This document shows positions 22,098 to 55,727 of a stretch of DNA of 64,000 bases, piece by piece. The position numbers and the translations under genes are program-made. The notes beneath the pieces were generated by a model. That model searched no databases, was not told the origin of the DNA, and worked only from the letters and a program-made list of their open reading frames with translations. This DNA is from Planctomycetota bacterium (lineage in GTDB: Bacteria; Planctomycetota; Planctomycetia; Pirellulales; UBA7805). Numbering within the stretch: position 1 is the first letter of the stretch; every line of letters begins with the position of its first letter. Location of the stretch: contig QQVP01000011.1 of NCBI GenBank assembly GCA_003389215.1, positions 72,315-136,314 of the forward strand, read 5' to 3'.

Positions 22098-22240
22098 GTT
22101 CAACCTGCCCCGCGGCGTTTCCTGGACTTCGATAGCGCGGTTGCGTAAGGCCGTCATCGAATCGACGGATTTGAGCCATGCAATCCGGGTGAGGCTCTCG
22201 TGTCGCAACCCGCTCGTGCGTTTTTGATTCAGGATCAATT

Positions 22241-23668: not shown

Positions 23669-23671
23669 CCA

Positions 23672-25282
23672 ATGAATGAGAAGCGAAGCCAACGAAGCCA
23701 AGGTCGATCACGTGCACAACGCTTGTCCGAATCCCTCTTGCGAGCGTCAGCCCCTTCATTTCACGCTCGGCATATTGCAGAGCCGAAACTCGTTTTCGCC
23801 AATCAGCACTTATGCGAAGACCCGAAGACAGGTTTATCCGAGTATGGCCCCGCTGCTCTCGACGGAACTCCCCGGACGGCTATTCGCGTTGGCGTGATCG
23901 GTAGTGGGGACTCGATTCAAAGACTAGGTAACTGGGTTGAATCGGCGCGTTCGCGAATCTATCCCGGACTGAACTCAAAAGGGAAACCGTTTGACCCGCT
24001 GTTTGCTCCGAGCTTTCCGGGATTCGGTTTGGATAGTCCGTACAGTTGTGAAGTCGAGTTCGATGATCGGCTCACTGTAACTCTCACCGAACGGGAGCTC
24101 ACCATGATAGTCGCTGCGGGTGAGTTTTCAGCGCGAGTGCAGGTCGCGGTCGAGTTGATCTCGGCAAAACTGAGTGTCCTTGCCGACCGGGAACCTGCCC
24201 CTGACGTTGTTGTGTTGGCAATGCCGAAGGATGTGGAGGACGCGATCGGACCAGAAGCCCGCGCAGGCCAAACTCGACCTATTCGGCTGACGCCTCTTCA
24301 AAAAAAGGAAAGAAAAAGACGGGAGGAGGACAAGCAGCGAGGACAGTTGCTACTTCGATTCGAGTCAGAGGATGTATCGGAGCCGGTGACTCCTTCAAAC
24401 CAATTCCGCGACTTTCACAACAGCATCAAAGCACACGCAATGAAAAGTGGTCTGGCAACGCAGCTTGTCTGGCACAGCACTCTCGCTCGTTCGCGCGGCA
24501 AAGAAGATCCCGCTACGACGGCTTGGAATTTCTTCACAGCACTTTACTACAAATCTGGAAACGTGCCGTGGCGTTTGAATTTTGGAGCAACTCGGACTTG
24601 CTATGTCGGAATCACGTTTTATCGAGAATCGTCAGATCCAGGCGCTCCCACGCGAACATGCCTCGCTCAAGCATTCTCAGAGAGTGGTGAAGGTCTTGTT
24701 CTGCGGGGGGAACGGGTCACGTGGGATAAGGAGCGCGACAGGAAGCCGCACCTCAACCGCGCTGACTCGGAAGCAGTTCTTCGGCGAGTCTTGGAGCTGT
24801 ATCGGGATCATTTCGACGAAAGGCCCCACCGTGTGGTTTTACACAAGACATCTAGATACTGGCCCGAGGAACTCCAAGGATTTAGAGCTGCGTTGGACGA
24901 CATCCATTCATACGACTTCCTTGCATTAGAACGAAGAGGGCTTCGTTTTTTGAGGCTAGGAAAAGAACCGCCGGTCCGAGGAACCATGATTGAACTTGGT
25001 GACCGCGACTACCTCGTGTTTACCCAAGGGTACGTGCCTTTCATCAGGCAGTACCCTGGCATGAGGATTCCGAATCCTCTTGAAGTTGTTGAACATCACG
25101 GAGACTCTTCTGGTGAACGCGTCTGTACCGAGATCCTGGCGCTCACAAAACTGAACTGGAATACTTGCAAGTTTGCCAGTGGCGACCCAATCACAACGTC
25201 TTTTTCGAGACAGGTGGCGACCATCATTAAAGAGCTGCCAGAAGGAGTGACGCCCGCAACCAAGTATCGCTTCTACATGTAA
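23672..25282 (+). CDS. Short prokaryotic Argonaute (MID-PIWI only; SPARTA sensor subunit)
   Basis: 536 aa, too short for the N/PAZ lobes. PIWI-type segments: ALYYKSGNVPWRL, CYVGITFY and RVVLHKTSRYWPEE. Paired with TIR-APAZ upstream. Confidence 0.85.
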   Translation: MNEKRSQRSQGRSRAQRLSESLLRASAPSFHARHIAEPKLVFANQHLCEDPKTGLSEYGPAALDGTPRTAIRVGVIGSGDSIQRLGNWVESARSRIYPGLNSKGKPFDPLFAPSFPGFGLDSPYSCEVEFDDRLTVTLTERELTMIVAAGEFSARVQVAVELISAKLSVLADREPAPDVVVLAMPKDVEDAIGPEARAGQTRPIRLTPLQKKERKRREEDKQRGQLLLRFESEDVSEPVTPSNQFRDFHNSIKAHAMKSGLATQLVWHSTLARSRGKEDPATTAWNFFTALYYKSGNVPWRLNFGATRTCYVGITFYRESSDPGAPTRTCLAQAFSESGEGLVLRGERVTWDKERDRKPHLNRADSEAVLRRVLELYRDHFDERPHRVVLHKTSRYWPEELQGFRAALDDIHSYDFLALERRGLRFLRLGKEPPVRGTMIELGDRDYLVFTQGYVPFIRQYPGMRIPNPLEVVEHHGDSSGERVCTEILALTKLNWNTCKFASGDPITTSFSRQVATIIKELPEGVTPATKYRFYM

Positions 25283-25311
25283 GTGCTATCGACCATAGGA
25301 TCAACACATCT

Positions 25312-28300
25312 ATGTCCCACAAGGGCTTTATCCCATCGGCGGCGACCTTCATTCGACAGATTCGCCAGAATCTGTCTGAGGGAAGGTACGCGATTGGCGA
25401 TACTGGCTTTCCAATCATCAAAGAGCTGGTCCAGAACGCAGACGACGCGACTGCGTCGACCCTACACATTGGTATCTCGCAACCGCCAACAGGCCTTGAG
25501 CACCCTCTGCTGCAGTCACCAGGGATGTTCGTCATCAATGACGGCAAGTTTGAGAAAAGCGACGCTGCGAACATTCGCCGTTTCGGCGAAAACACAAAAT
25601 CGATGGATGCCGCCAAAATCGGCAAGTTTGGCCTGGGGCTGAAAAGCATCTTTCACTTGTGTGAGGCGTTTTTCTTTTTCGGAAAAGTCAACGATGGCGC
25701 CTCGGAGAAGTTCATCGCTGACGTGCTCAATCCCTGGTCCGACCAGACCGATAGCTTTCATCCAGACTGGGATAGATTCTTAGAGTCCGACCAGAGAATC
25801 GTGCTGAAGAGTCTTCTGAAGCATTTCGGCAGTCGGGATTGCTTCTGCATCTGGATTCCATTGCGCCAGCAAGAGCAGCTAAACGGCAGTGAGCCCATTA
25901 TCAAGTTCTTTCCGGGAGACGATTTGCCCTCCTGGTTGGCTGCGAATGAGCTCTCGCCGGAAATCGCCAAACTCCTCCCCATGCTTGAGCACTTGAACTC
26001 AATCCATGGCTGGATGGGGCTCGGTGAAGACGCGGCAAAAGAATTTGAAGTGTCGCTGGGAAACGGCAGTAGTCGAAAGCACTCCTTCACGGAACTCAGT
26101 TTGAAGGAGGAAGCTTTATTTCACGGGAATGTGTCAGTAGCTCGGCGACGGGGCAACAGCGAGGTTGTTGTATTTTCCGGTTGTGAGCTGAACCCTGGTG
26201 ACGAGGCTCTGATTCGACTTGAGGAAGACAATCATTGGCCCAGCGATCTAGGTCGGGATCCAGAAACCGGCATTGCGACCAACGTGCGAGAAAAAGCCAG
26301 GCAGCATGCCGGCGTTTGTGCATCGTACAGAAGGTACCAAGCAGGTCACGGAAGACTCTCGATCAGCTGGGCAGTGTTCTTGCCGTTGGGTGAGCCCGAA
26401 ATTCTTCAAGTGCCAGAGGTTCCGCTGGATCTTTCTCTGTTCCTGCATGGCTATTTCTTTGTCGATGCTGGACGTAATCGACCAATCGGCCTGCATGACC
26501 GCAGGGTCGACGCTGACAATCTGCGTGATGACGAACAACTCCGCCACAGCTGGAACCAGCGGCTCGCTGATATTGGAACCCTTCCACTGATCCCACGTTG
26601 CCTGAGTTCATTGACTGACGGGGCTGATGCCAAGCTCAGCAATGAGGAACTCTATGCCGTGACGAAGGCGCTGCAGTGGTCCGACTTCTTCCGAGAGTTC
26701 AGGAACCAAATCTGCAGCAGAAACAACTGGGCCAATGTGTGGAACCCGGACCGTATCCGCAGCTGGCAATTGCTCGAGTCTCAGGCATCGCTCTTCGAGC
26801 TTCCTGGATGCTCGAGCAAGGATTTGCCGTTTGAACTTTTCTCAGCTCTTGAAGACGTAGTCGATGAGCACAAAGTAACGCAGGCTGGGTGTCCTCGGCT
26901 CTTGAACGATTCCGTCAAGTCGGCCTGGTCAGCCGATGTCGTGAAGTTGCTGCTGGAAAGCATTGACTCAGCGCAACTGATGACTTCCGTCGATCGCGCC
27001 AATTATCTCTGTGATTTCCTCGAGAGCATCACTGACTCGGTTCCTGGCAGTGTACGCGATCCGATTTGTCGGATCATTCGCCAGGGGTTGGCGCAGTGTG
27101 GATTCGTGAAACCGAAGCAACTCGGCGTGCCACTCGCCAGACTCATCTCCTTCATTCCTCCGGACAGTCGTTTGCCCTTGGACCTGCCGGAGGAATTCTC
27201 GGATGCACTGATCCGCCTGGTCAGTAGTCGGGAGCTGGATATTGTCGTCGTGCCTGCAGAACTCGATTCCACGAGCAACCCAGGACGGGCGAGGCTGCGA
27301 CCAGAGGACTTGGTCTTGGTGCTTGGCTGTTTAGCAGAACAGCAAAATCAGAGCTCGGATTCAGCAGAAAAGGAAGCAGTAGCCACTTTGGCGGCACAGC
27401 TGATCAATGCTGCAAATGCTCGCGAGGAGGCACTGGCCGCAGTAGCGGATTTGCCCCTTTTCATTGCGAAAGACTGCCGCAGCAGGCAGGACAAGCTGGT
27501 CTCATGGAACGACGTCGTACGACACCGTGACCAAAAGACACTGTTTGTTAACCCTTCACCGAATGCCTATTCACTTCAGAAGGCTTTTGACACCGAAACG
27601 GTGCTACTCATCTCTAAAGACTGTTTTGAAGCCATTTTTCCAGGTGAGCCCCCATCGCAGTGTACTCGGGCAATGGTCGTTGAGACTCTCGGCCGACGTG
27701 AAACGCCGGTTTTGGGAACACCCGCAAATCGCTTGGAGCTTTTGAAATTCATGATTGGCTCGAGAAGCGAGCCTGGGCAGAGTTCCGCTCATTATCGAGC
27801 TGTTCGCTATCTCTTTCACGGAGAGTCTGCTGAGTTCGAGTCTTCGAGTTCGCTGTTGATGACGACGGGAGCCCAATCAGACATCTGGCGACGTATCACC
27901 TCCTTTTCCCTCAGCACTCAGCAGGCGGAATGGCGACTTCTTGACCCAGTGTTCGCTCCCATCTTGTCTGGAGAAAATCAAGACAACTTCACAATCCGGC
28001 AAATTAGTGCTGAGAGCGCCATCCCACTGATTGTCGAGGTGGGCCCTGACGCGTTCAAAGATCTCCGGCCTTCGCCAACTGAGTACGCGACTCTTCTGAA
28101 AGAGATTGTGGATGACAACTTATGCAAGCGTCTTGCGATTCACCAGGATCTCGGAGGCGACTTCGTGTCGATCGGCGACGACTGCTACTGGGAAAGTGAC
28201 ATCTCGTTGCCCCCATCCCTGGAGCATGGCGTAACGATTCTGCGACGAAGTGAGGACGAGGGGATTTGGCGACGGCAAAGAGACCTCGTGCGTTGCCTTG

Positions 28301-31300
28301 ACTCCGCTGCTCTGATTGAGATCGTTCTTGATTCCGCCAATCCCGCGAACCATTGGCAGACCCTTGCTGATGCAATCGTTGAAGTTCCGTTCCTGCCCGA
28401 AGAAAGTCTACGGAAGCTTCGGACATTACAGTGGTTGCCGCTTCGCGACCAAGGCTACGCCTCTCCTGAGGACATCATTCACCTCCCGAGAATATCCGAC
28501 GAAGTTGCTCGGTTAACGGCTCAATTCCCTGGCATCTTCTACGAGCCCGGCATGTTGCGTGAGGAGATCCAGAATCATCCCAGCTGGGCCAAGATCTCAC
28601 AGCAGTTGATACCCGGACAGGAGTCCGCCCTGACGATGCTGGGAGTACTTTTACTTGAGGATCAGCAGAACCACGTTGGCTCACTTCGCGCCGCGGTATT
28701 TGACGATTGGCGAGAGGTGGCATCCGGAATATCGGATGACTTGCTCCCGTGCGGAGAGCTAATCGGGCACGCCTCGTCGCATTACCCGAGTTCCACACGT
28801 CGGATTTTCGAGCAGTTATCGAAGCCCGACATTAAGCCTGAGAGAATTCAGGTCTTTCTTGATCACTTTCAGCTGCGTCACCAGAAGGAAAAGGCTGCCC
28901 GCCGTAGAGGTTATCTTGTAGCCGTCTTCAATGACTATCTGCGATTGAAGGTGGAGACACGCGGATACGGTAGCGCTCTGACAGATCAACAGCTGCCCAA
29001 CAGCCTGGGCAGTTGGAAGCTGGCGTCCGAGCTGTGTTGCCAGAATGATGGAGTTGATCCGTCAAGCGTTGTTGATCAAACCACGGAGGAAGTCCTGTCG
29101 AGTTCGATGCCAAGTTCGCTGAAGTCGGCAGGATTGAATTCGTCTTTCGGCGGCCTCGACGATGGGCAGGAACCCGATTGGTCGACGATTCAGCCTGAGA
29201 TTGACGCAGCCGGACACCGGCTCAGAGACTATTTCGAGCCGTGGCGCGATATCGTACCGAATGAACAGATTGGTGGATTCCTGGCGCTGCTCGGAGACGA
29301 CCCTGAGATTCGTAAATGCGCGGAGGAGTATCTAGGTAAGAATCGGACGCTTGATGAGACTCGAATCAAATTTGGAATCCCGGATTGGAAGGACAAGACG
29401 GGGACACTCGTGGAAGATGCGCTGACGCTCATTTCAAAGCAGCGCGTCATCGTACAGGCTGTTGCCGACAAGAGCGTTGAGGTGTTAAGCCTCATGGGAG
29501 CTCCGATCTATGTGCCACGCAATGAATCGCCGAAGAGTGTTTTCGTCAGCTATGGGAAGCGTAATTATCCATTCCCTCACACGGTAATCGATGGCAAGAG
29601 AATTATCTGCTTTCGACTCAACGTAATCGATCCGCGGCGGCAAACAGAATCCGATCTTGTCCGACTTCTGCGGGACTCGGCAGTTCAATTTATCGTTCAC
29701 GCATACAACCATTACGAGTACCAGACTTCTTTCGGGGCAGCATGGGATGAACTCTCTGAGAGCGATCAGCTTGATATCAGCATCGCGCAGGAGCGGATCA
29801 TTGAACACGGCTTCCTGATTCTGGACCAGCTTGGCTTACGCGGTGATCCTCAAGTTGCGGCAATCCTTGATCGCTGGGATGCAGCCGACCGTCTTTTAGC
29901 TGAACAACGCTCAGGGGCTGAGCAAAGTTCGGCGAGCAGCCGCAGAAACCCTGACATCGAACTGCGAGCGGCAAAGACGGCGCTAAGGGAAGTCCTGGAG
30001 AATGACCGGTCCGTTCAAGTACGCATCCTGGCGGCGATAAAACAACGCGTTTCGGAACATTACCAATACACCCAAGCGGCGGTACCGTTTGAGATCTTTC
30101 AGAATGCAGACGACGCGTCACTCGAATTCGCGAAACACTGGGACTTAACGGATGCCGAACGCCAGGCATCACAAACATTTCATGTGGATGTGACAGAGAA
30201 CTGCCTGACTCTCGCGCATTTCGGACGTCGCATCAACCAATATCCTCTGGAACGTCGTGATGCCACGATGGGGTTCGATAATGACCTCTGGAAAATGCTC
30301 GTGCTGTCTTTGTCAAACAAGGTGCATTCGGAAGATGACGGGAGAGCTTCAGTTACCGGCAAATTCGGACTTGGATTCAAGAGTTCATACCTCATTTCGG
30401 ATCGTCCTCAACTTCTGAGTGGTCGACTCGCATTCGAGGTAACCGGGGCGATGTATCCGCGTCGGCTCATTGCTGACGAGCGGTTGAATCTGGACACATT
30501 CCGCAAGGATAAGCTTGGAGGAAACGCTCAGTCCACGATCATACAGCTGCCGCTGGCAACAGCCACGTCGTCGGAGATTCTGCGGGACTTCACTCGCCTT
30601 GCACATCTCGCGGTCGTGTTCGCACGTCAGATTCGGTGTTGCGTTCTTAACGCAGGGGAAGGAGAAGCAACATGGGACCCGAAACGTCTGGATCGAATCG
30701 AAGGAGGCAAGGTCGGCAAATTGTCGGCTCTTCAGTCAAATTCTAATCCACAGTCGACTCAGGGACTCCTGCTTGAGTCGGCTCACGGTTCCGTTTTGTT
30801 TGCAATTAATGCTCGCAGCATCGACTATTTCGATGATGATGTTCCATCGATTTGGGTGACCGCGCCCACTCGCGAGTTCCTTGGTCTCGGGTTCCTCATC
30901 AATGGTCCATTCGCACTGGATGTCGGGCGGGCACAGCTCGCTCGTGAATACGAGCAGAACAAAGAACTCGCAACTCAACTTGGAATCACGATTGGTGAAC
31001 AACTCTGTCAGTTGTTTCAGGCAGCGGATTCCCAGGAAGGCTGGAATTCCCTTCGCGAAGAGTTAAGGCTCGCAGAAGATGCCTCACCCTATGACTTTTG
31101 GGATTCCCTATTCAGCCTACTTGGTACTGGTATCGCGGGACGAGTCCAATGGGACACGCCAGCCGACAATCTGGTCCGGGAAGTGTTTTGGACGGACACC
31201 GATCGTGGTGCAGCAAGGCTTTACCGAAGTTGCCAAGCCGTCCCATCAAGAATGCGTGGGGCGTACCAACGGCTGATCTCCACATCGCAAATACGATATG

Positions 31301-33015
31301 CCGTCTCCGGCCTATTGTCAGACGAACCAGAGATCTTCTCAGCGATTTCGCAGTGGGAGGCGTTTCAGGAAAACGCAGGTCCGGGTGCTGTCGTGTCATT
31401 CGCACACGTCTTTGAACCCCTTAGGCAGCTCGCTTCAAGATCTGAATTGTCCGTGTCCCATGTCGGAACTCTCAGCATTCCAACGGTACTTGGCTGGGAA
31501 TTCAAATACGGCGAGTTCGCGACACCAGAAATCGCAGCCCGGATGGGCGAGGTGCTCACGAAAAAGGCGTTAGAACTTATGTCTGACACCGAGTATCGCG
31601 CCACTAGGGAAGTTCTGGATGCAGTGCAGTTCAAGGGGCGTGACAACCGGTTTCATCCAGGCAGAGAGCTGCTGATCGGTCACGAAACAGTACTTGAGAG
31701 AGACGATCGCAGGGACGACGAGCGATTTCGAGCTGAGTTCGCTCCCGATGCGCGCGTGCTAAGCGAAGAATACAGCGGTACTGGGATTGCGTTCTTTGAT
31801 GTTTGCCGCGATACGCTTGAGGCCCCGGCTCGAGTCATGGCAGAGTGGGTGATTCAAGCGAGTGAGATTTCGCAACAACGAGCGGCATTGGAATACTTAG
31901 CACGGGGACAACTCTCAGATGCTCTTTTAAATGAGTTGAAACGGCGGGGGTTTGAGGGTACGTGGCTGGCCGATCTGGCCAGCTCAGCCGCCTTCAGAGC
32001 ACTCGATGAGTCTACAAGAAACCGACTGTTCGATCTGCTGCCTCGGGATGCACGCCCCAGGACCGACTGGGATGCTTTCTTTGGTGAAGCATCGCCTCAG
32101 CATTTCAGCGATCCGGAGACGGTTCTGACTGGCCTCTATGATTGGTGGATTGAAAATCGAGACACGCCGCAGAAGCAATTCCATAGTCGGACGTATCTGG
32201 AGGAATACACACGACGAACTTATCCATCGGGAACCCCCAAATTTCTGCCTGCTGAATCTTTCAGCGATGACAAGCAACGCAGGACGGAATGGACGACGCT
32301 GTTTCTGTTAGCACTGATGCATACGATCGGGCGTGCCCGTCCGGGGCAACATCGTGAATTCATTTCCAAATGCAAAGATGAGGGGTGGCTGGAACTTTTC
32401 GCCTCTTCAGAAACGGATAGCGAACGATGGATGTCCTTTGTGGCAGATTATCTCGAAAGACAGATTGAAGAAGCTGAATACTTCCATTGGATGCGTCAGT
32501 TTGTCGGCATCTTTCAAATGTCGCGTTACCTGGACGATTATATCGAGCTATTCCTCGCGATCGACCGGATCGATCGTCCATTCCAATTGGTTGAAGTTCT
32601 CCATTCCCGTTCGAGCAGCCTGTTCCAAGGAGGCGGAGTCAGCGTGCCCCCGCTCTCTCGCGTCCTGGGACTTGGATCGTGTTTTGTCGTTCGAGAGTTG
32701 GTACGTTTGGGCGTCCTTGAGTCAGAACATGCGATCGATCACTGCTTTGTTCCGGTCAAACGCGTGCGCGACGTCTTCCAACGCATGGGCTGCGATGGAC
32801 TGGATCTTCAGGTCCAGCGATGGGCAATGTCTAGCTATCTTTACCGTTTCGTTGCAGATCACCTTGGGGCAGACCGTGCGACATTTATGAACGACTTCGA
32901 CATCCCTTTCCAGTTCGTCGCCGAGGACAATGACCTCTGCCACAGATTCTTCCACCGTGGTGCTCCGGATGATGAGTCGGAAGACGAAATGATTGACGAC
33001 GACCTTGTGTTTTGA
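25312..33015 (+). CDS. Giant (2,567-aa) protein with two sacsin-like GHKL (Hsp90-type) ATPase modules
   Basis: Module 1: IIKELVQNADDA (25423-25449) … IGKFGLGLKSIFH. Module 2: FEIFQNADDA (about 30097-30117) … TGKFGLGFKSSYL (about 30358-30385). A single uninterrupted ORF; no other domain recognised. Confidence 0.8.
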   Translation: MSHKGFIPSAATFIRQIRQNLSEGRYAIGDTGFPIIKELVQNADDATASTLHIGISQPPTGLEHPLLQSPGMFVINDGKFEKSDAANIRRFGENTKSMDAAKIGKFGLGLKSIFHLCEAFFFFGKVNDGASEKFIADVLNPWSDQTDSFHPDWDRFLESDQRIVLKSLLKHFGSRDCFCIWIPLRQQEQLNGSEPIIKFFPGDDLPSWLAANELSPEIAKLLPMLEHLNSIHGWMGLGEDAAKEFEVSLGNGSSRKHSFTELSLKEEALFHGNVSVARRRGNSEVVVFSGCELNPGDEALIRLEEDNHWPSDLGRDPETGIATNVREKARQHAGVCASYRRYQAGHGRLSISWAVFLPLGEPEILQVPEVPLDLSLFLHGYFFVDAGRNRPIGLHDRRVDADNLRDDEQLRHSWNQRLADIGTLPLIPRCLSSLTDGADAKLSNEELYAVTKALQWSDFFREFRNQICSRNNWANVWNPDRIRSWQLLESQASLFELPGCSSKDLPFELFSALEDVVDEHKVTQAGCPRLLNDSVKSAWSADVVKLLLESIDSAQLMTSVDRANYLCDFLESITDSVPGSVRDPICRIIRQGLAQCGFVKPKQLGVPLARLISFIPPDSRLPLDLPEEFSDALIRLVSSRELDIVVVPAELDSTSNPGRARLRPEDLVLVLGCLAEQQNQSSDSAEKEAVATLAAQLINAANAREEALAAVADLPLFIAKDCRSRQDKLVSWNDVVRHRDQKTLFVNPSPNAYSLQKAFDTETVLLISKDCFEAIFPGEPPSQCTRAMVVETLGRRETPVLGTPANRLELLKFMIGSRSEPGQSSAHYRAVRYLFHGESAEFESSSSLLMTTGAQSDIWRRITSFSLSTQQAEWRLLDPVFAPILSGENQDNFTIRQISAESAIPLIVEVGPDAFKDLRPSPTEYATLLKEIVDDNLCKRLAIHQDLGGDFVSIGDDCYWESDISLPPSLEHGVTILRRSEDEGIWRRQRDLVRCLDSAALIEIVLDSANPANHWQTLADAIVEVPFLPEESLRKLRTLQWLPLRDQGYASPEDIIHLPRISDEVARLTAQFPGIFYEPGMLREEIQNHPSWAKISQQLIPGQESALTMLGVLLLEDQQNHVGSLRAAVFDDWREVASGISDDLLPCGELIGHASSHYPSSTRRIFEQLSKPDIKPERIQVFLDHFQLRHQKEKAARRRGYLVAVFNDYLRLKVETRGYGSALTDQQLPNSLGSWKLASELCCQNDGVDPSSVVDQTTEEVLSSSMPSSLKSAGLNSSFGGLDDGQEPDWSTIQPEIDAAGHRLRDYFEPWRDIVPNEQIGGFLALLGDDPEIRKCAEEYLGKNRTLDETRIKFGIPDWKDKTGTLVEDALTLISKQRVIVQAVADKSVEVLSLMGAPIYVPRNESPKSVFVSYGKRNYPFPHTVIDGKRIICFRLNVIDPRRQTESDLVRLLRDSAVQFIVHAYNHYEYQTSFGAAWDELSESDQLDISIAQERIIEHGFLILDQLGLRGDPQVAAILDRWDAADRLLAEQRSGAEQSSASSRRNPDIELRAAKTALREVLENDRSVQVRILAAIKQRVSEHYQYTQAAVPFEIFQNADDASLEFAKHWDLTDAERQASQTFHVDVTENCLTLAHFGRRINQYPLERRDATMGFDNDLWKMLVLSLSNKVHSEDDGRASVTGKFGLGFKSSYLISDRPQLLSGRLAFEVTGAMYPRRLIADERLNLDTFRKDKLGGNAQSTIIQLPLATATSSEILRDFTRLAHLAVVFARQIRCCVLNAGEGEATWDPKRLDRIEGGKVGKLSALQSNSNPQSTQGLLLESAHGSVLFAINARSIDYFDDDVPSIWVTAPTREFLGLGFLINGPFALDVGRAQLAREYEQNKELATQLGITIGEQLCQLFQAADSQEGWNSLREELRLAEDASPYDFWDSLFSLLGTGIAGRVQWDTPADNLVREVFWTDTDRGAARLYRSCQAVPSRMRGAYQRLISTSQIRYAVSGLLSDEPEIFSAISQWEAFQENAGPGAVVSFAHVFEPLRQLASRSELSVSHVGTLSIPTVLGWEFKYGEFATPEIAARMGEVLTKKALELMSDTEYRATREVLDAVQFKGRDNRFHPGRELLIGHETVLERDDRRDDERFRAEFAPDARVLSEEYSGTGIAFFDVCRDTLEAPARVMAEWVIQASEISQQRAALEYLARGQLSDALLNELKRRGFEGTWLADLASSAAFRALDESTRNRLFDLLPRDARPRTDWDAFFGEASPQHFSDPETVLTGLYDWWIENRDTPQKQFHSRTYLEEYTRRTYPSGTPKFLPAESFSDDKQRRTEWTTLFLLALMHTIGRARPGQHREFISKCKDEGWLELFASSETDSERWMSFVADYLERQIEEAEYFHWMRQFVGIFQMSRYLDDYIELFLAIDRIDRPFQLVEVLHSRSSSLFQGGGVSVPPLSRVLGLGSCFVVRELVRLGVLESEHAIDHCFVPVKRVRDVFQRMGCDGLDLQVQRWAMSSYLYRFVADHLGADRATFMNDFDIPFQFVAEDNDLCHRFFHRGAPDDESEDEMIDDDLVF

Positions 33016-33042
33016 GCTGTATCCGAATAGGAATTCACTGAA

Positions 33043-35733
33043 ATGTTTCAACAGAACGATCATGTACGAAGCGATAAGTTCGGGATCGGCCACGTACTTG
33101 TTTGCGACGGCGAAACAGTAATCGTTCAGTTCGAGCACGGAATTGAGCGTTGTAAGCTAGATAACCTGGTCGAAGTGGACAGTCCGCGGAAGTCCCTGCG
33201 GAAAGAGATGTGGGATGTCCCGCTTGAGGTAGTCACTCGTCTTCAAGCAGAGGCGATTCGTTCAGTAAACGACACATGGGGAGTACTGTCGAAGTCTCGA
33301 ATTGCGCTGTTGCCCCACCAGCTCTGGGTTTGCCGTCGAGTACTTGAAGCTTGGCCAACTCGATGGTTGGTTGCCGACGATGTTGGATTGGGAAAGACGA
33401 TTGAAGCGGGTCTGATTCTGTGGCCTCTCTTGTCACGCGAGAACGTGAATCGTCTGCTGATCATCTGCCCTGCATCGCTTGTTGACCAGTGGCAGGCACG
33501 ACTCCGGGACATGTTCGACATTCGTGTTGCACTTTATGTTTCTGAAGCCGATACCTCGAAGTCTGATTTCTGGCATACCCATCCTCAGGTTGTCGCTTCT
33601 CTGCAAACCCTCAGAAAAGACAGTAACGAGCGCCACCAGCGGATGCTGGAGTGCCCGCCTTGGGACTTGATTCTCGTCGATGAAGCTCACCACTTAAACG
33701 CGGATGAACAGGGCGGTCCGACACTGGGATATCGTTTCCTGGAGAAGATCGTCGAATCCAACCAAGTGAAGTCCATGGTGTTCTTCACCGGGACGCCGCA
33801 TCGCGGAAAGAATTTTGGGTTCCTGTCTCTTGTCAAGCTGCTTCGTCCCGACCTGTTCGATCCACGCAAACCGCTTCACGAGCAGCTCCCCTTGCTCCGC
33901 CAGGTGATGATTCGGAATAACAAGCAGAATGTGACCGACCTCAAGGGCAACCGGCTCTTCTTTCCACCCAAGGTCACTTCGGACACCTATTCGTATTCGC
34001 AAGAGGAAAACCGGTTCTATGACATGCTGACTGAGTTCATTGCAACCGGTAAGGCATACGCTTCAACCCTGAGTTCAAATGACCAACGAACAGCGATTCT
34101 GGTGCTAATCGCCATGCAGAAATTGGCATCAAGCTCTGTTGCGGCGATCCGGAGGGCACTCAGGAATCGGTACAATCGAATCCAGTCCACGAGGGAGCAA
34201 TTGGCGAAGCTTCAGGCCCAGAGAGATTTGCTTTCGTCGTATGAAGAACTTGAAAGCAACAATGACCTCGACGACCTTAATCGCCTGGATGAACAGCTCG
34301 CAGAGACGGAAGTCAATCTCAGCCTTATGGAAGATGAAGAGCCAAGACTCGCAGAGCTGATTGAAGCAGCAGATGTCGTGGAGTCAGAAACGAAAATCGA
34401 CAAGATCCTATCGCTCTTGGAAGAAAGTTTTCCCGATCGCTCTGTGTTGTTTTTCACGGAGTACAAGGCAACCCAGTCGTTATTGATGTCGGCGCTCATA
34501 AGGGAATACGGAGATGGGTGCGTGGCGTTCATCAACGGGGACGGTGTCGCGGAAGGAGTTGTTCAAGCGGACGGGAACAGCAAGGCCATGAAAGAAGACC
34601 GCGCGAGTGCGGCTTCCAGGTTCAATGCAGGGAAAGTGCGATTCCTGGTCTCAACCGAAGCCGCTGGCGAAGGGATCGACCTCCAAGAAAAGTGCCATAC
34701 GCTGATCCATGTTGATTTGCCGTGGAACCCCATGCGGCTTCATCAACGTGTGGGGCGACTCAACCGCTATGGCCAGACCAAACAGGTCGAGGTAATGACA
34801 CTGCGAAATCCAAGCACAGTGGAGTCGCGAATCTGGGAAAAACTGAACGAAAAAATCGACAGCATTATGCAGTCGATGGAAAACGTCATGGACGAGCCAG
34901 AAGACCTGCTTGAGCTAGTGCTAGGCATGTCCTCTCCGTCGATGTTCCGCGAAGTGTTTGCTGGGGCGAGCGATGTTCCAGCGGGTTCTCTGTCAAAGTG
35001 GTTCGATGAAAAGACGGCCAGGTTTGGCGGCCAGGACGTTATCGATACGGTGCGGGACTTGATCGGACACTGCTCGCACTTCGATTTTCAGGCGATGTCA
35101 GAAAAAATCCCGAAGCTGGACCTACCGGCTCTTCGCCAGTTTTTCCTGGCAATGCTCAAGCTGAACAATCGGAACTACGAGGAGTCGGATGAAGGACTGA
35201 GTTTCAAGACGCCGGACCGCTGGCTGACCTCCCCCGCGATCCGAACAACCTACAGGAATGTTGTTTTTGATCGCGCTGCCGGAAAGTCGATTTCAAGTGA
35301 GCGCATCTTGGGGGTCGGGCATGCGATTGTTGACCAGGCGGTACGCCAAGCTAGAGAAAGCACTGCCAGCGTGACTTCAATCGCCAAGAGCGTGTTGCCG
35401 AATTCTGTCTTCGTTTACCGCGTTGTCGACAAGGTAACATCGAAGTCGTCCAACATCCGGGCGTTTGTTGTTGGGGTTGAGTTCCTGGAGTCCAGTGTTC
35501 AGATCTATCGAGACTGGGAGCTCTTACTAAAACTAAATGAGCTGCTAGCGAAGCGAACGCTGCGCCGAGACGAAGCAATGCCGCGCCCATCCGGCACAGA
35601 GTTGCTGGATAATCAAGTCAAACAAGGCATGGAACTCGTTGAGAATCACATGGCTGACTTTGATTTGCCATTTGAAGTTCCAGAGGTTCACTTTCTGGGC
35701 GTGTTATTGCCTGATAGCGAGGTAGGCGATTAG
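33043..35733 (+). CDS. SNF2-family ATPase, RapA/HepA-like
   Basis: 896 aa. The N-terminal small beta-barrel-like segment FQQNDHVRSDKFGIGHVLVCDGETVIVQFEHG resembles the RapA N-terminus. Motifs: LVADDVGLGKTIEAG (about 33375-33400), LVDEAHHL (about 33677-33694), STEAAGEGIDLQ, DLPWNPMRLHQRVGRLNRYGQ. Confidence 0.85.
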   Translation: MFQQNDHVRSDKFGIGHVLVCDGETVIVQFEHGIERCKLDNLVEVDSPRKSLRKEMWDVPLEVVTRLQAEAIRSVNDTWGVLSKSRIALLPHQLWVCRRVLEAWPTRWLVADDVGLGKTIEAGLILWPLLSRENVNRLLIICPASLVDQWQARLRDMFDIRVALYVSEADTSKSDFWHTHPQVVASLQTLRKDSNERHQRMLECPPWDLILVDEAHHLNADEQGGPTLGYRFLEKIVESNQVKSMVFFTGTPHRGKNFGFLSLVKLLRPDLFDPRKPLHEQLPLLRQVMIRNNKQNVTDLKGNRLFFPPKVTSDTYSYSQEENRFYDMLTEFIATGKAYASTLSSNDQRTAILVLIAMQKLASSSVAAIRRALRNRYNRIQSTREQLAKLQAQRDLLSSYEELESNNDLDDLNRLDEQLAETEVNLSLMEDEEPRLAELIEAADVVESETKIDKILSLLEESFPDRSVLFFTEYKATQSLLMSALIREYGDGCVAFINGDGVAEGVVQADGNSKAMKEDRASAASRFNAGKVRFLVSTEAAGEGIDLQEKCHTLIHVDLPWNPMRLHQRVGRLNRYGQTKQVEVMTLRNPSTVESRIWEKLNEKIDSIMQSMENVMDEPEDLLELVLGMSSPSMFREVFAGASDVPAGSLSKWFDEKTARFGGQDVIDTVRDLIGHCSHFDFQAMSEKIPKLDLPALRQFFLAMLKLNNRNYEESDEGLSFKTPDRWLTSPAIRTTYRNVVFDRAAGKSISSERILGVGHAIVDQAVRQARESTASVTSIAKSVLPNSVFVYRVVDKVTSKSSNIRAFVVGVEFLESSVQIYRDWELLLKLNELLAKRTLRRDEAMPRPSGTELLDNQVKQGMELVENHMADFDLPFEVPEVHFLGVLLPDSEVGD

Positions 35734-35774
35734 TTTGAAATACATTTCATAGGCCGACCACCTCCGTCGAGAAT

Positions 35775-38700
35775 GTGGCCGTTCGACGGACGGTTGACCA
35801 GTTCTGTCCGCTGTTCTGCGACGTAACGACTCGATGCCGCCAACGTGCACAAATCATTGAAATGCTGGAGGAATTGCAAGCGCGTATGCCCAAGCAAGAC
35901 ACTACGATCAACACACTGACTGTGCCGGCACTCTGGGCGCACCCGGTACGCACCAGCATCGGGCAGATCGTTCACCTGCTGAAGCCGGAACGGACGCTTG
36001 AAGTGCTCGACGTTGAAGAGGCGAAGGTCTCGCCACGTCGAACGGAGTCGTTGTACGTCGTGTCAACTGGTGAACGACTCGTGATGACGGAGCGTCGAAC
36101 GTGTCCGCTTCCCGTGGGGGCGGACGGCATCCTCATCCAAGCGGATAACGGAGCAATCGATTGGCTTCATAGCGCGGAGCGTGACGCCCATCGTGACAAG
36201 ACTAAGGGAAGCGGCCTTGCCGACCTGAAGCGGGAAATCGCCATCACATGGCGAGCGTCATTTCGCTACCGTGCTGAGCAGCAGGGTGGTGATGGCGTCC
36301 CCATCGAACCTGGCTTGCGCCCGCCGCAGATCGGAGCACTTCATGCCATCGGTTCGCATTGGAGCTTGTACCGTCACCCGGCCACGATCGTCATGCCCAC
36401 GGGGACCGGTAAGACCGAAACGATGTTGTCGGCGTTGGCCGCATTCGGGGTCGGCACAATGCTCGTTGTCGTGCCGACGAGACCGCTGAAGGATCAGACG
36501 ATTCGCAAATTCACGACGTTCGGTTTGCTCCGCGACCTCGGTGTTCTTCCGGATGACGTCGAGAATCCCATCGTTGGCATCATCTCAAAACGCCCGCGTA
36601 AGAAATCCGACTTGCGGCCCTACGCAGCTTGTCATGTCGTCGTCGCCACGATGTCGTCATTGGCTCAGGGAACCGCCGCCGGATTGCTCGATGACTTGGC
36701 CTTGCTCGTCGACACACTCGTGGTCGATGAAGCACATCACATCGCCGCGAAAACCTGGAGAGGATTCCGAGAGGCGTTTCAGTCCAGAAGGGTATTGCAG
36801 TTCACCGCCACGCCGTTTCGGCGAGACGGCGAACTGGTAGACGGCGACGTCATTTACTCGTACCCGCTGCGACGTGCTCAGACAGACGGCTATTTCAAGC
36901 CGATCACATTCTCGGCCGTCCACGAAATCGATCCGGAGGACGCCGATCAGGCCATTGCCGAACGTGCAATCGGGCACTTGAAAGACGATCTAACGGCAGG
37001 CTGGGACCACCTGCTGATGGCCAGATGCGACACGATCGAACGCGCAACGAGCACTCATGGGATCTACGAATCACTCGCCCCTGAGTACGAACCCATCCTG
37101 GTTCATTCCGAGTCGGCGGAATCGGTGCAAAACCTGGACAAGCTCCGGTCCGGAAAGAGCAAGATCGTCGTGTGCGTCGATATGCTCGGAGAGGGATTCG
37201 ACCTGCCCCAACTCAAGATCGCCGCCGTGCACGACACTCACAAGAGCCTCTCCGTGTTGCTTCAATTCACTGGACGATTCACGCGCACGTCAGGAAAGTC
37301 CGTCGGGGACGCAACCGTCGTCGCGAACATCGCGGACCTGAGAGTTTCGGATGCATTGGAGCGGCTCTACAGCGAAGACGCCGATTGGAATCACCTGCTG
37401 AGCGAGTTCAGTTCGCAAGCCGTCAAAGAGCATAAGGAACTGATCGACTTCCTGAACGCTTCTGAGCGTCTCGACGACGGTGACCTGCAGTCGACCCGTA
37501 TCTCGCATCATTTGTTGCGTCCGAAGTTCAGCGCGGTGGTGTACCACTGCAATGCGTTCAAGCCGAAAAAATTCCATGAAGCCCTGGGCAAGGAAGTGAC
37601 CGTGCACGCGGTCTGGCTCCATCACGATTCGAACACGCTGTACTTCGTGACCCGAAGCGACCCGCCGGTTCTCTGGACGAGATCGAAAGAGGTCCACGAT
37701 CGGCAATGGCATTTGTACGTGGTGCACTTCGATTCCGTACGAAAGCTCCTCTTCGTCAACTCAACGGACAAGAGTTCCGTTCACGAAGGGTTGGCGAACG
37801 CCGTCGGCGAGGGGGTGAAGATCATTCAAGGAGACACGGTCTTTCGGACATTGGGAAACATCAACCGCCTGATTTTTCAGAACATCGGGGTGAGAAAGGT
37901 CGGGCGGAGAAATCTGCGCTACGCGAAGTACACGGGGGCCGATGTGCGGCAGGCCCTGTCCATTACGCAAACGTCCGGCTCGGTGAAATCGGACTTGGCC
38001 GGGACGGGATTCGAGCTGGGCGGCCCCGTGACGATCGGCTGCTCGATCAAGGGGCGAATCTGGTCGAGGCGTAACGACACCGTTCGCCGATTCTTGGATT
38101 GGTGCCAAGGCGTCGGGGGGAAACTGATCGATGCGTCAATCGACACGTCCAAGATCATCGAAAACGTCCTGATCCCTGACGAAGTGACGGCGTTTCCCGA
38201 TGCGATGGTGCTGTGCATCGATTGGCCGCTGGAGATTCTTCGACAGTCCGAGGAAAAGGTCACCCTGTCGGTCGACGATGCGGAGTTCCCGATCACGTTA
38301 TTTGAGATTGAGGCTGACGATACTTCAGCCCAGGGCGACACGCTTCGATTTCGAGTTGCAAGCGAGAACCATTCGTGCCAATTGTCGCTGCGACTCGGAG
38401 TGCAGCGAGGCTTTGAGGTCGCCCATGTCTCCGGTAGCCGGTTCAAACTGAAGTGCGGAAAGCTGGAGACGAACCTCGAAACGTACTTGAGCGACTATCC
38501 GCCTCTCATCAAGTTTTCCGATATGTCCGAACTCGATGGAAACTTGCTGGTCAGGCCTCAGGATACGCGAGAGTTAGTCCTGCCACCGGAGCGGTTCGAG
38601 CCGTGGGACTGGAGCGGAGTCGACATCGCGGCGGAGTCGATTTGGAAGTCCGACAAGAGACGCTCCAGTTCGATTCAGGGGCATGTAGCTGAAAAGTACC

Positions 38701-39173
38701 AAGCCGGTGGATTCACCGTCGTGTTCGATGACGATGCGAAGGGTGAAGCGGCGGATCTCATCTGCCTCAAGGAGGAAGACGAGGTCATCCGTCTCGCCCT
38801 GGTGCACTGCAAGTTCAGCAAGGGAAAGGACGCCGGCGAGCGAGTCGGCGACGTGGTCGAGGTGTGCTCCCAAGCAGTGCGTTCTGCAAAGTGGAAGTGG
38901 CGATTTCGCGAGCTTGTTCGTCATGTACTTCTGCGAGAAAAACGCCTTCGAAAGTCGTACCGGAGCTCCCGATTCCTCAAAGGCGACGTAAAGGAACTCA
39001 ATCGATTCGTTCAACTGAGTCGATTTAAGAATCTTGAGGTTGAAATCCTGATTGCCCAGCCGGGCTTGTCGCGGGATGACTGCACGGCCGAACAAACGGC
39101 CGTCCTCGCCGCCGCCGACAGCTTCTTGCTGGAAACAGTCGGAGTCACGCTAGGGATTGTTTGTAGTGAATGA
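35775..39173 (+). CDS. SF2 (DEAH, type III Res-like) helicase with C-terminal Mrr-like PD-(D/E)xK-type motif
   Basis: 1,132 aa from GTG 35775 (alternative ATG 35862). Helicase motifs: IVMPTGTGKTE (about 36392-36418), VVDEAHHIA (about 36725-36740), QFTATPFRRDG, MLGEGFDLP, LQFTGRFTR. C-terminus: DDDAKGEAADLICLKEEDEVIRLALVHCKFSKG (38745-38825). Confidence 0.8.
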   Translation: MAVRRTVDQFCPLFCDVTTRCRQRAQIIEMLEELQARMPKQDTTINTLTVPALWAHPVRTSIGQIVHLLKPERTLEVLDVEEAKVSPRRTESLYVVSTGERLVMTERRTCPLPVGADGILIQADNGAIDWLHSAERDAHRDKTKGSGLADLKREIAITWRASFRYRAEQQGGDGVPIEPGLRPPQIGALHAIGSHWSLYRHPATIVMPTGTGKTETMLSALAAFGVGTMLVVVPTRPLKDQTIRKFTTFGLLRDLGVLPDDVENPIVGIISKRPRKKSDLRPYAACHVVVATMSSLAQGTAAGLLDDLALLVDTLVVDEAHHIAAKTWRGFREAFQSRRVLQFTATPFRRDGELVDGDVIYSYPLRRAQTDGYFKPITFSAVHEIDPEDADQAIAERAIGHLKDDLTAGWDHLLMARCDTIERATSTHGIYESLAPEYEPILVHSESAESVQNLDKLRSGKSKIVVCVDMLGEGFDLPQLKIAAVHDTHKSLSVLLQFTGRFTRTSGKSVGDATVVANIADLRVSDALERLYSEDADWNHLLSEFSSQAVKEHKELIDFLNASERLDDGDLQSTRISHHLLRPKFSAVVYHCNAFKPKKFHEALGKEVTVHAVWLHHDSNTLYFVTRSDPPVLWTRSKEVHDRQWHLYVVHFDSVRKLLFVNSTDKSSVHEGLANAVGEGVKIIQGDTVFRTLGNINRLIFQNIGVRKVGRRNLRYAKYTGADVRQALSITQTSGSVKSDLAGTGFELGGPVTIGCSIKGRIWSRRNDTVRRFLDWCQGVGGKLIDASIDTSKIIENVLIPDEVTAFPDAMVLCIDWPLEILRQSEEKVTLSVDDAEFPITLFEIEADDTSAQGDTLRFRVASENHSCQLSLRLGVQRGFEVAHVSGSRFKLKCGKLETNLETYLSDYPPLIKFSDMSELDGNLLVRPQDTRELVLPPERFEPWDWSGVDIAAESIWKSDKRRSSSIQGHVAEKYQAGGFTVVFDDDAKGEAADLICLKEEDEVIRLALVHCKFSKGKDAGERVGDVVEVCSQAVRSAKWKWRFRELVRHVLLREKRLRKSYRSSRFLKGDVKELNRFVQLSRFKNLEVEILIAQPGLSRDDCTAEQTAVLAAADSFLLETVGVTLGIVCSE

Positions 39174-39265: not shown

Positions 39266-40285
39266 TCAAATAGAGATACGCTCAACGATGTTCCGGGTGA
39301 CTTGCCTATGTCGACGATCGTAGAGGCGTGTTGTGCGAGGGTCGGCGTGACCGGCGAGCATCTGGACATCTTCCAGCGGAACGCCTTGGCTCAGCAGGTC
39401 GGTGATGGCAGCTACGCGAAATGAGTGAGGAGAGAGACGCGACGGAAGCCCCGCCTGACGCATCCGGCGCTTGACCATTCTCGCCATGTCGCCAGCTGAC
39501 ATAGCGTTCTGCGTCATTCGCTTCGTCCGCCGAATTGTGGTGCGGAACAGCGGAGTCGATTTCTCTGAATACTCCAGCCGGGCTGCGTTCAGGTAAGCCG
39601 AAAGGAATCCGCAAAGGTCATGGCGGACCGGAATCTCGCGAGTCTTCGTTCCTTTTTCTGTGAACCGCAAGCAGTATTGTTCGCCGGCATCGTAGTAGTC
39701 ACCTCGTCGTAGTCGAGCCACCGCACCGACGCGAGCGGCGGTGTAAATCAGGATCGCAATAATTGCTTTGTCGCGGAGCCCGATTGCGTGTGACGTGTCG
39801 ATGCTGCCGAGCAAATGGCGGGCTTGCTTGACGGTGATCTCGGGGGTTCGTCCTTCAACGACTTGAAGCCGTTCCCCACGAACGGATGAAGCCGGGTTCA
39901 GAATCACAACGTGTCGGCTGACCAACTGATCGAAGAAGTGACGCAGCGCAGACAAGTGTAACTTTTTCGTCGCAGGTGCGAATTCCAGTTCGTCAAGATA
40001 TTGCCCTACGTCTCTTGGGGCGATCCTCGAAAGCTCAATCCCGCGATATTCACACCACGCCAGGAATCGGGCAACTGCGTGCGAGTAGTTGCGTCTGGTA
40101 TGCCGGTTTCGAAGCCGGCCGTATACAAACTCCTCCCACACGAAGACCGCTGCAGGCCCTGCGCTGGTAACGAGTTCTGGTACGTTCGCATTCGAAGAGT
40201 AGGTAGCCATCGCCAAAGCCTGCCTGGCTGCTGGAAGATTTGCGTTCGGGTTATCCATTTCATTGCCTAGCCAAACAGATGCCAC
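39266..40285 (-). CDS. Tyrosine recombinase / phage-type integrase
   Basis: 339 aa with an N-terminal SAM-like core-binding domain. Catalytic residues: ARVGAVARLRRGDY (Arg), HSFRVAAITDLL (HxxR), LAGHADPRTTRLYDRR (His…Tyr). Confidence 0.9.
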   Translation of the reverse strand: MASVWLGNEMDNPNANLPAARQALAMATYSSNANVPELVTSAGPAAVFVWEEFVYGRLRNRHTRRNYSHAVARFLAWCEYRGIELSRIAPRDVGQYLDELEFAPATKKLHLSALRHFFDQLVSRHVVILNPASSVRGERLQVVEGRTPEITVKQARHLLGSIDTSHAIGLRDKAIIAILIYTAARVGAVARLRRGDYYDAGEQYCLRFTEKGTKTREIPVRHDLCGFLSAYLNAARLEYSEKSTPLFRTTIRRTKRMTQNAMSAGDMARMVKRRMRQAGLPSRLSPHSFRVAAITDLLSQGVPLEDVQMLAGHADPRTTRLYDRRHRQVTRNIVERISI

Positions 40286-42839: not shown

Positions 42840-43353
42840 CAATGGGTCTCCTGCAAAAGGAACATCGAAACGCGATGATCCAGCCAACACGGCCGGGCCA
42901 CCGACCTTCCCGCAAGAAGGTCGACAACCCGGCAGGCGTTGCCGAGGCCACTGAATGGCGAAAACCATGTGAGACTACCGGCCCATTGACTCGGCGCCAC
43001 GCTGAGTCAACAGGCCGAAGATCCTCTACCCATTTCAGACTTGAGAGACCTGCAATTCCATTTCCGTAGCATACTGATCGGAAAAAGTAATCGTCTCAAA
43101 AGGTAAAATACGGGCATGGCCCTACACGGGGCACAAAGAACTGGTTCACAACCCGCCTTCAGGAAAGCTGGAGCCGACGAACCTGCTCGCAACCGGGCTG
43201 TTGTTTGCGGTCGCATCTCTGCGTCGAGGCCGATGCGTTGATTCAACCCACCCGACGAAACGGTTAGAATGTTCTCTACTCCCGGAGAGGCCGAAGGCTG
43301 CAGTCCCAGCGCCGTTTGAGAATCACAACTTTATTCTGGAGTGAGCTGCACTG

Positions 43354-48198: not shown

Positions 48199-48271
48199 CT
48201 CTTTTTATCTCCAGTGTTCTAGGGTAGCGCCTGAGTTCCGTTGACTCGTAGCTTGGTCGACGATTGATTTG

Positions 48272-50701: not shown

Positions 50702-50843
50702 ATTGAATTCTTCAATTGGATGCTGGAGGTAGTACGCAATCGATCCGGCGATTGCAAAAAAGCGGCCCGAACGTATTCAATGCGAAAGGATGTTTGTGAG
50801 GAATGGTGCCGATCGAGTTGATAAACTCCGTCAAAGGTCCCAG

Positions 50844-53204: not shown

Positions 53205-53271
53205 GACAAGTGGTACTCTCGCGTCGAATCAATACGTTGGCCGCGACACGCTGCCGCTGGGCATCCCGGAT

Positions 53272-55683
<2,412 letters not shown>

Positions 55684-55727
55684 GATTACTCCGACCCTTC
55701 AGTCTTAGTGTCAGCGACGAGTCCAAC

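Follow-up and report, generated by a model that had tools for sequence, protein, structure and literature searches.

The closest described relatives of the locus analysed here are prokaryotic conflict modules in which a GHKL ATPase is coupled to a superfamily 2 (SF2) helicase or to a nuclease and is proposed to gate that effector. MORC-type GHKL genes were predicted in operons with SWI2/SNF2 or Rad25-like helicases fused to restriction-endonuclease-fold DNases, in contexts resembling restriction-modification systems (Iyer, Abhiman & Aravind 2008, PMC2292703), and in the GHKL-nuclease VcSduA defence depends on the GHKL glutamate (PMC12137116). The present locus was taken from a stretch of 64,000 nucleotides (nt) of a Planctomycetota bacterium (GCA_003389215.1, contig QQVP01000011.1, positions 72,315–136,314, forward strand), referred to as the window, and holds a giant GHKL gene (G1), an SNF2 gene (G2) and an SF2 helicase gene (G3); compared loci and proteins carry L and P numbers. 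A preliminary description of the window had pointed to earlier comparative genomics of GHKL/MORC-type ATPases beside SF2 helicases and nucleases; the operon prediction of 2008 is the nearest prior idea, and VcSduA is the nearest validated precedent for GHKL-gated defence. MORC/paraMORC proteins and VcSduA are, however, single-module proteins of ordinary size with a MutL/MORC-type GHKL and S5 unit, whereas G1 is a double protein of the sacsin/Hsp90 type with 2,567 amino acids (aa), in a pair that has no nuclease. G1 and G2 are read here, at a probability of roughly 0.6, as a self-contained, horizontally spreading two-gene module of defence or anti-mobile-element function directed at nucleic acids, with G3 as a separate neighbour; the defence function is deduced from genomic context.

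The G1–G2 pair and the neighbouring gene G3

The genes and the block of DNA on which the comparison turns are as follows:
25312–33015, plus strand: G1, 2,567 aa, double sacsin/Hsp90-like GHKL protein (open reading frame (ORF) call, Pfam, NCBIfam)
33043–35733, plus strand: G2, 896 aa, SNF2-family ATPase, RapA/DrmD-like (ORF call, Pfam)
35775–39173, plus strand: G3, SF2 helicase, ORF of 1,132 aa from a GTG; probable ATG start at 35886
25302–35702, plus strand: block of 90.5% DNA identity to Gimesia maris, covering G1 and G2 alone (blastn)

Conservation of gene order was analysed in 65 non-redundant loci, each with 2.5 kb or more of sequence downstream of G1, which together represent more than 15 phyla. 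A G2 orthologue (800–1,600 bits) lay directly 3′ of G1 on the same strand in 63 of these; the median distance was −4 nt, which corresponds to an ATGA-type start/stop overlap; three seeming exceptions to the adjacency were traced to the ORF filter. When metagenome loci were collected with G2 as the seed, G1 was found upstream wherever there was room for it, except at a copy truncated by an insertion sequence (L094) and at L099, where G1 was undetected. The similarity matrices of the two proteins were correlated (Mantel r = 0.75, a value reached in 0 of 2000 permutations), and G1 and G2 thus co-diverge. No other recurrent gene family near the pair was present in more than 7 of the 65 loci, and the 117 nearest flanking proteins were spread over 127 Pfam families, none of them in more than four.

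The closest relative of G1, 92% identical, is encoded by Gimesia maris. A blastn comparison of the window with the G. maris locus (L084) gave 90.5% identity from 10 nt before the G1 ATG to about 30 nt before the G2 stop, and homology was found neither at 19992–25300 nor beyond 35702, where G3 and the integrase lie; judged from this alignment, the block delimits the G1–G2 cassette as a discrete unit. Relatives of G1 are encoded in 403 species-representative genomes from more than 15 phyla (about 0.2% of representatives), among them Planctomycetota, Chloroflexota, Poribacteria, Hydrogenedentota, Desulfobacterota, Proteobacteria, Cyanobacteriota, Verrucomicrobiota, Acidobacteriota, Deinococcota, Bacillota and Nitrospirota. 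On these comparisons the conserved unit is a two-gene cassette of G1 and G2 that appears to have spread horizontally.

The preliminary description had put all three genes into one system, in which G3 would supply the helicase-nuclease effector, a view to be given up if the trio were not syntenic elsewhere. Its three co-directional ORFs of 2,567, 896 and 1,132 aa agree exactly with the ORF list, and every motif that it quoted for G1, G2 and G3 was located in the gene concerned. Of its two intergenic distances, 27 nt between G1 and G2 stands; the 41 nt given for G2–G3 is correct for the listed ORF, counted from the GTG at 35775, and since database gene calls and family alignments favour the ATG at 35886, 37 codons further downstream, the true gap is probably 152 nt. 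Scans for promoters and terminators between the three genes performed no better than on shuffled sequence. Synteny of the trio was looked for in the 65 loci, and a G3 homologue stood behind the pair in one of them (L009, Hydrogenedentota, 32% identity); the other 64 lack G3, and so does the G. maris cassette with its 92%-identical G1, where an integrase directly follows G2.

A single three-gene system is therefore very unlikely. Its support lies in the shared direction and close spacing of the genes in the window, in the distant homologue of L009, and in the predicted MORC-type operons with Rad25-like helicase-DNase fusions (PMC2292703), as G3 is itself XPB/Rad25-like. Set against these are the end of DNA homology before G3, the probable gap of 152 nt and the size and habits of the G3 family, which has more than 5,300 matches of about 1,095–1,100 aa at about 55% identity across phyla, and whose members stand by themselves, amid housekeeping genes or next to serine recombinases at the borders of mobile elements, with neither G1 nor G2 nearby. 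One full-length relative was present in IMG/VR. By gene neighbourhood, G3 is best described as a separate single-gene helicase that lies between cassette and integrase by chance.

G3 carries GTGKT at residue 210, DEAH at 318, TATP at 344, QFTGRFTR at 497, AADLICL at 992 and LVHCKFSKG at 1009, and matches Pfam ResIII, DEAD and Helicase_C as an SF2 helicase of the XPB/RadD type. Profile searches of its N-terminal region against Pfam and the PDB found nothing. The tail has invariant residues E954, D957, H974-C975-K976 and Q996 (P0121 numbering) and a predicted α-β-β-β-α topology that is compatible with a PD-(D/E)xK core in which H replaces an acidic residue; neither Pfam nor PDB sequences, nor Foldseek with a model of the tail, gave a significant match. 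Of the DEAH helicase with nuclease-like tail that had been announced, the helicase motifs and the tail motif are thus present and a profile or fold match is lacking, and what was called nuclease-like is a conserved D…HxK motif whose nuclease fold is unconfirmed. An effector role of G3 for the pair is unsupported, since the pair is conserved without it.

Architecture of G1 and G2

Three regions of G1 were delimited:
25345–25686, plus strand: GHKL module 1, ATP-binding N-lobe (G1 residues ~12–125)
30019–32097, plus strand: GHKL module 2, Hsp90-like N-terminal and middle domain (residues ~1570–2262)
32098–33012, plus strand: all-helical C-terminal domain (CTD) of ~300 aa (residues ~2263–2567; helical in the AlphaFold2 (AF2) model)

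The double sacsin-type GHKL identity proposed for G1 was borne out by two curated models, each of which matched in two stretches: Pfam SACS (PF25794) with 95.1 bits (cut-off 32.8) and NCBIfam P_loop_sacsin (NF047352) with 103 bits (cut-off 50). G1 thus scores as carrying the sacsin N-terminal ATP-binding domain above curated cut-offs. The motifs LVQNADDA (residue 39) and GKFGLGLKS (104) mark module 1, and FQNADDA (1596) and GKFGLGFKS (1683) mark module 2. The family counts 884 homologues whose length is held at about 2,550 aa. For each of the three proteins the full-length homologues number in the hundreds to thousands, so that the genes and their motifs are not products of chance.

Module 1 contains motif I (E38-x3-N42-x2-D45), motif II (N76-[D/N]77-G78) and motif III (G104-K-F-G-L-G-x-K-S), all invariant across 56 orthologues; its matches among solved structures include sacsin SRR1 (5v44; E 1e-18) and MORC2 (E 2e-4). 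The MORC2 match is confined to the N-lobe, and a Foldseek search with module 2 had no MORC or MutL among the 50 matches listed. In module 2, motif I (E1594/N1598/D1601) and motif III (T1682-G-K-F-G-L-G-F-K-S) are likewise conserved in the 56 orthologues, and the Asp-Gly of motif II is replaced by an invariant H1636-W-G-R-x-I-N1642. Because this replacement coexists with retention of the other motifs, module 2 appears to be under constraint and may differ in nucleotide binding or hydrolysis. A second motif common to both modules lies about 280–340 residues past motif I (HGYFFxDAGR in module 1, NGxFxLDVGR in module 2) and probably supplies the middle-domain arginine of Hsp90-type ATPases. Duplication of an entire half of G1 was considered and rejected: alignment of the N-terminal with the C-terminal half by HHalign (probability 95.7) was limited to the GHKL N-lobe, to which detectable duplication is confined.

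An AF2 model of residues 1570–2567 had a mean predicted local distance difference test score (pLDDT) of 83.4, and its top Foldseek matches were full-length Hsp90, HtpG, TRAP1 and GRP94 (E ~1e-8 (2e-8), 550–780 columns). By these matches the predicted structure, which was obtained for module 2 only, identifies this module as an Hsp90-like unit of N-terminal and middle domain, in line with what has been suggested for the sacsin repeat. Eukaryotic sacsin shares with G1 the ATP-binding family, its repetition in one giant chain and the Hsp90-like fold; it differs in that G1 has two modules instead of three, no ubiquitin-like (UBL), DnaJ or detectable HEPN domain, an SNF2 partner gene and a private CTD. 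An HEPN RNase at the G1 C-terminus, tried by analogy with sacsin, was rejected: a GRxxPxQHR string, akin to the Rx4-6H motif that defines the domain, occurs in the consensus, but its R and H are not conserved in the 56 orthologues, and no Pfam or PDB match to HEPN was found. Profile searches of G1 residues 125–1590 and 1720–2567 against Pfam and the PDB also found nothing.

For the CTD, searches gave no Pfam or PDB sequence match and no relatives beyond this family. It is carried by 860 protein clusters (50% identity) and always stands at the extreme C-terminus. Two comparisons bear on its role. First, in metagenome loci L103 (5376–8996) and L106 a 1,206-aa protein with one weak GHKL domain and a CTD 48% identical to that of G1 precedes a G2 orthologue, a pair that looks like a minimal version of the G1–G2 system. 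Second, two loci of Poribacteria, L019 and L044, are collinear: an identity of 77–85% at nt level extends over both flanks and over the first ~2213 residues of G1; at the same chromosomal site the 3.9-kb segment of L019 that encodes CTD and G2 is replaced in L044 by about 0.95 kb that encodes a NOV_C tail. The same sister architecture is seen in P0106 (2,336 aa), where NOV_C/DUF3883 takes the place of the CTD and no G2 adjoins. Since Poribacteria exchange the CTD and G2 for NOV_C and since a single-GHKL protein with a CTD also pairs with G2, we infer a double-GHKL scaffold with alternative DNA-directed output arms, in which the CTD would be the coupling or docking domain for G2. DUF3883 was introduced in the literature as a new domain with a restriction-endonuclease fold (PMC3710099). 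Sister bacterial variants of G1 share their terminal NOV_C (PF13020) with plant NO VEIN, in which it is likewise C-terminal. Double-sacsin giants with a NOV_C/DUF3883 end, no CTD and no SNF2 partner were noted in L044 and L069 (Poribacteria) and as P0104, P0106, P0111 and P0115; the giant of L044 appears split or frameshifted at about residue 540.

G2 carries GLGKT at residue 115, DEAH at 213, TGTP at 249 and QRVGRLNR at 568 and matches Pfam SNF2-rel_dom and Helicase_C, so that motifs I, II, III and VI, which define the SNF2 family, are all present; by these motifs G2 is an intact SNF2 motor. Profile searches of its termini against Pfam and the PDB found nothing. Its nearest solved-structure relative is RapA (E 3e-32), to which it aligns over most of its length, and together with the motifs and Pfam domains this upholds the earlier label of a RapA-like SNF2 ATPase. 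The NCBIfam RapA model, aligned over residues 37–774, scored 167 against a cut-off of 576. As a housekeeping gene, RapA occurs singly and is inherited vertically, whereas G2 is coupled to G1 and has a patchy distribution that points to horizontal spread.

Named systems and genomic setting

The preliminary description had stated that it knew of no experimentally defined defence system with such a composition, and neither PADLOC v2 nor the literature open to searching yielded one; a description of the G1–G2 pair was likewise not found in a full-text literature search. A PADLOC run, suggested there as a check, labelled G2 as 'DrmD' over its full length and G1 as TmtA in the N-lobe only, and returned no named system of this make-up.

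Of the systems to which these labels point, class 1 DISARM was weighed most closely. DISARM DrmD, like BrxH, HmaA and DpdE, is the same kind of SNF2 motor as G2, and the pair sometimes lies beside DISARM; DrmA, DrmB, DrmC and DrmMI are not part of the G1–G2 unit. That G2 could serve as DrmD in an incomplete or decayed class 1 DISARM, with G1 as an add-on, is suggested by the end-to-end match to PADLOC model PDLC02634 'DrmD' (1126 bits) and by DrmMI-like or DISARM genes near the pair in several loci. Despite the full-length PADLOC match, G2 stays below the NCBIfam cut-offs for a DrmD equivalog (DISARM_DrmD 299 against 610; DrmD_b 162 against 950). Among the core genes of DISARM, drmA encodes a helicase with DUF1998, drmB a DUF1998 protein and drmC a phospholipase D (PLD) protein; DUF1998/MZB and PLD proteins are absent among the ORFs of the window, PADLOC models of DrmA, DrmB and DrmC matched at noise level, and the three are also absent from most pair loci. 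The methyltransferase fusion of the window (14130–18350) matches type I methyltransferase/S models and not DrmMI, and DrmMI-like genes were near the pair in only about 7 of the 65 loci. On plasmid C of Trichormus variabilis ATCC 29413 a class 1 DISARM, complete and annotated, that has a drmD besides G2 adjoins a convergently oriented G2–G1 pair, and L036 and L057 likewise have a canonical DrmD besides G2. Membership in DISARM was rejected because the core genes are absent and adjoining DISARM systems carry their own DrmD, and a partial DISARM, already largely refuted, is the least credible of the alternatives. PDLC02634 in effect models the G2 family, and its label can create false partial-DISARM calls for SNF2 genes associated with G1.

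On the same plasmid (L188/L189, 252.6–285.1 kb) the DISARM locus was seen to have an embedded ATP-binding gene and a DUF4435 gene; G1 is annotated there as two ORFs (828 and 1,853 aa), and further on lie two more genes, of 1,223 aa (helicase-related) and 1,012 aa.

Two further systems were considered and rejected. Hma is a DUF499-centred, BREX-related system composed of the AAA+ ATPase HmaC, the methylase HmaB and the helicase HmaA, and became a lead through matches to HEC-06 and HmaA; the match of G2 to PADLOC HmaA is partial (226 bits), and HmaC is a DUF499 AAA+ protein whereas G1 is a GHKL protein without an HmaC match. Tiamat, a single-gene system (TmtA), has a GHKL N-lobe like that of G1 and differs in architecture, size and the lack of a partner gene; TmtA matches about 90 residues of each G1 GHKL N-lobe, out of profiles of 1,300–1,650 positions (E 1e-22). 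The methyltransferase fusion upstream was rejected as a third component: it is kept in G. maris, but methyltransferase-like genes are near the pair in few other loci.

Features around the cassette were assigned as follows:
9023–11404, HsdR; 11415–12953, HsdM; 12838–14124, HsdS: complete type I restriction-modification system
22241–23668, plus strand: TIR-APAZ protein, one half of SPARTA (PADLOC)
23672–25282, plus strand: short prokaryotic Argonaute (pAgo), the other half of SPARTA, which stops 29 nt before G1 (PADLOC)
39266–40285, minus strand: XerC/D-like tyrosine recombinase at the island edge (NCBIfam)

The setting described earlier, with SPARTA immediately upstream at a distance of 29 nt and an integrase just downstream, was found as announced: PADLOC recovered both SPARTA genes, and the tyrosine recombinase follows on the minus strand, so that the locus lies in a defence island beside an integrase. 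The pair adjoins integrases in both the window and G. maris; the recombinase of the window shows no homology to the integrase (456 aa) that occupies the equivalent position in G. maris. Between conserved flanks, a variable slot (19992–25282 in the window, 3031–9939 in L083/L084) holds in the window SPARTA and a GmrSD-like HEC-06/Orf5 protein that is extended at its C-terminus by a PDC-S18-like part, and in G. maris a SIR2-APAZ-pAgo fusion plus PDC-S68, an arrangement that marks the slot as a hotspot for the exchange of defence cargo. Five plasmids carry the pair, one of them conjugative, and G1 had no match in 50,697 phage genomes. Recurrent neighbours of the pair were SPARTA or SIR2-pAgo, PDC-S68, DruE-like and UvrD-like helicases, DrmMI/DrmD and complete DISARM.

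The proximity of Argonaute genes raises the question of whether the pair, in planctomycetes, is an accessory of the adjoining short-pAgo system (SPARTA or SIR2-pAgo). Besides the 29-nt spacing in the window, a short pAgo ends about 20 nt before G1 in Aporhodopirellula (L001), and the SIR2-APAZ-pAgo of G. maris is one gene away. A pAgo was, however, undetected in all other fetched loci from other phyla, and the pAgo modules of the window and of G. maris are non-homologous cargo of the slot while G1 and G2 stay constant, which makes an accessory role highly improbable.

Several observations on the surroundings stand on their own. In three unrelated genomes (L001, L015 and L016) the pair has beside it a DruE-like helicase of ~2,200 aa (DEAD/Helicase_C/MZB) and, after this, a UvrD-like one of ~690 aa; this couple may be a system in its own right. 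To the left, the variable slot is bordered by two genes at 14130–19992. In the first (14130–18350; 1,406 aa) N6-adenine methyltransferase, type I specificity and AAA_16 domains are fused, and the second encodes a 573-aa AAA_35/NACHT-like STAND ATPase. The two overlap by about 80 nt and are kept in G. maris at 79% and 69% nt identity; they are a possible uncharacterised two-gene system, and NCBIfam MAD2 and MAD5 scores in this region were far under the cut-offs. Just past the recombinase, a DUF932-family gene (41811–42968, minus strand) is consistent with remnants of an integrative element. Further right, five tandem paralogous sulfatase genes (45832–58076, minus strand; ~780–810 aa, Sulfatase plus SGSH_C, spacing ~2.45 kb), typical of planctomycetes near Gimesia maris, precede a DUF1254/DUF1214 gene and an AraC-type regulator, housekeeping sequence that marks the end of the island. 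No att-like direct repeats were found bordering the island, the only repeats seen being those among the sulfatase paralogues, and the 64 kb contain no tRNA genes.

Function and significance

A defence or anti-mobile-element role of the G1–G2 cassette is proposed because of its patchy spread over many phyla, its carriage on plasmids, the integrase-flanked islands, the defence neighbours and the swapped cargo slot. GHKL dimers close in Hsp90, MutL and MORC. By analogy, G1 would act as an ATP-gated sensor or clamp scaffold whose two GHKL modules close on each other, and its CTD would recruit or control G2; G2, the DNA-translocating output arm, would act on foreign DNA or nucleoprotein complexes by stripping, stalling or exposing them, and the pair would do so with no dedicated nuclease.

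Several points weigh against this proposal. For a gene in an arms race, G2 is unusually well conserved, and many loci have ordinary or unannotated immediate neighbours (for example L004). The contact between CTD and G2 is deduced from co-occurrence; module 2, without the canonical adenine-binding Asp of motif II, may not hydrolyse ATP. About 1,150 aa of G1 (residues ~420–1570) gave no Pfam or PDB profile match, and profile searches detected neither a nuclease nor another toxic effector in G1 or G2.

The main rival is a non-immune pair, an accessory chaperone-remodeller for the rescue or recycling of transcription, replication or repair complexes that have stalled. It would accord with RapA, an RNA-polymerase recycling factor, as the nearest solved relative of G2, with the Hsp90-like predicted structure of module 2, with sacsin having been reported as a chaperone (cited in PMC3710099), and with the absence of a detected effector domain, the high conservation of G2 and the location of some loci among housekeeping genes. 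Such a role is nevertheless unlikely, given the rare and patchy spread (~0.2% of species representatives) over many phyla, the plasmids and integrase-flanked islands with repeated DISARM, pAgo, PDC-S68 and DruE-like neighbours, an output arm that is replaceable by the restriction-endonuclease-like NOV_C, and the NCBIfam RapA score of G2 far under its cut-off.

A bolder version of the defence proposal, speculative and at present rather improbable, would make the cassette a nuclease-free immune or silencing machine. The sacsin-type double Hsp90-like clamp would sense foreign DNA, nucleoprotein or a phage protein client and, through the CTD, unleash the SNF2 translocase, which would evict the replication or transcription machinery of the invader or stall it. 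The cassette would then be a prokaryotic counterpart of eukaryotic silencing of the MORC/SMCHD1 plus DDM1/LSH type and a bacterial source of the sacsin and NO VEIN architectures, with NOV_C and the CTD–G2 segment as interchangeable arms.

The G1–G2 cassette is robust, widespread and undescribed, and belongs to a kind that is already known, that of conflict modules built from a GHKL ATPase and an SF2/SNF2 motor. It draws interest by its size, its distribution, the absent nuclease, the link to sacsin and a modular logic that is open to test: the exchange of CTD and G2 for NOV_C gives a ready hypothesis on which part is the sensor and which the output. If the cassette is a defence module, it would be a widespread, very large and mechanistically unexplored system without a recognisable nuclease, in which an Hsp90/sacsin-type ATPase and a chromatin-remodeller-type motor serve as immune machinery. 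G1 would offer a tractable bacterial model for the sacsin repeat, which is biochemically poorly understood in the human ataxia protein, and the pair would provide a testable link between bacterial conflict systems and the GHKL plus SNF2 silencing pairs of eukaryotes.

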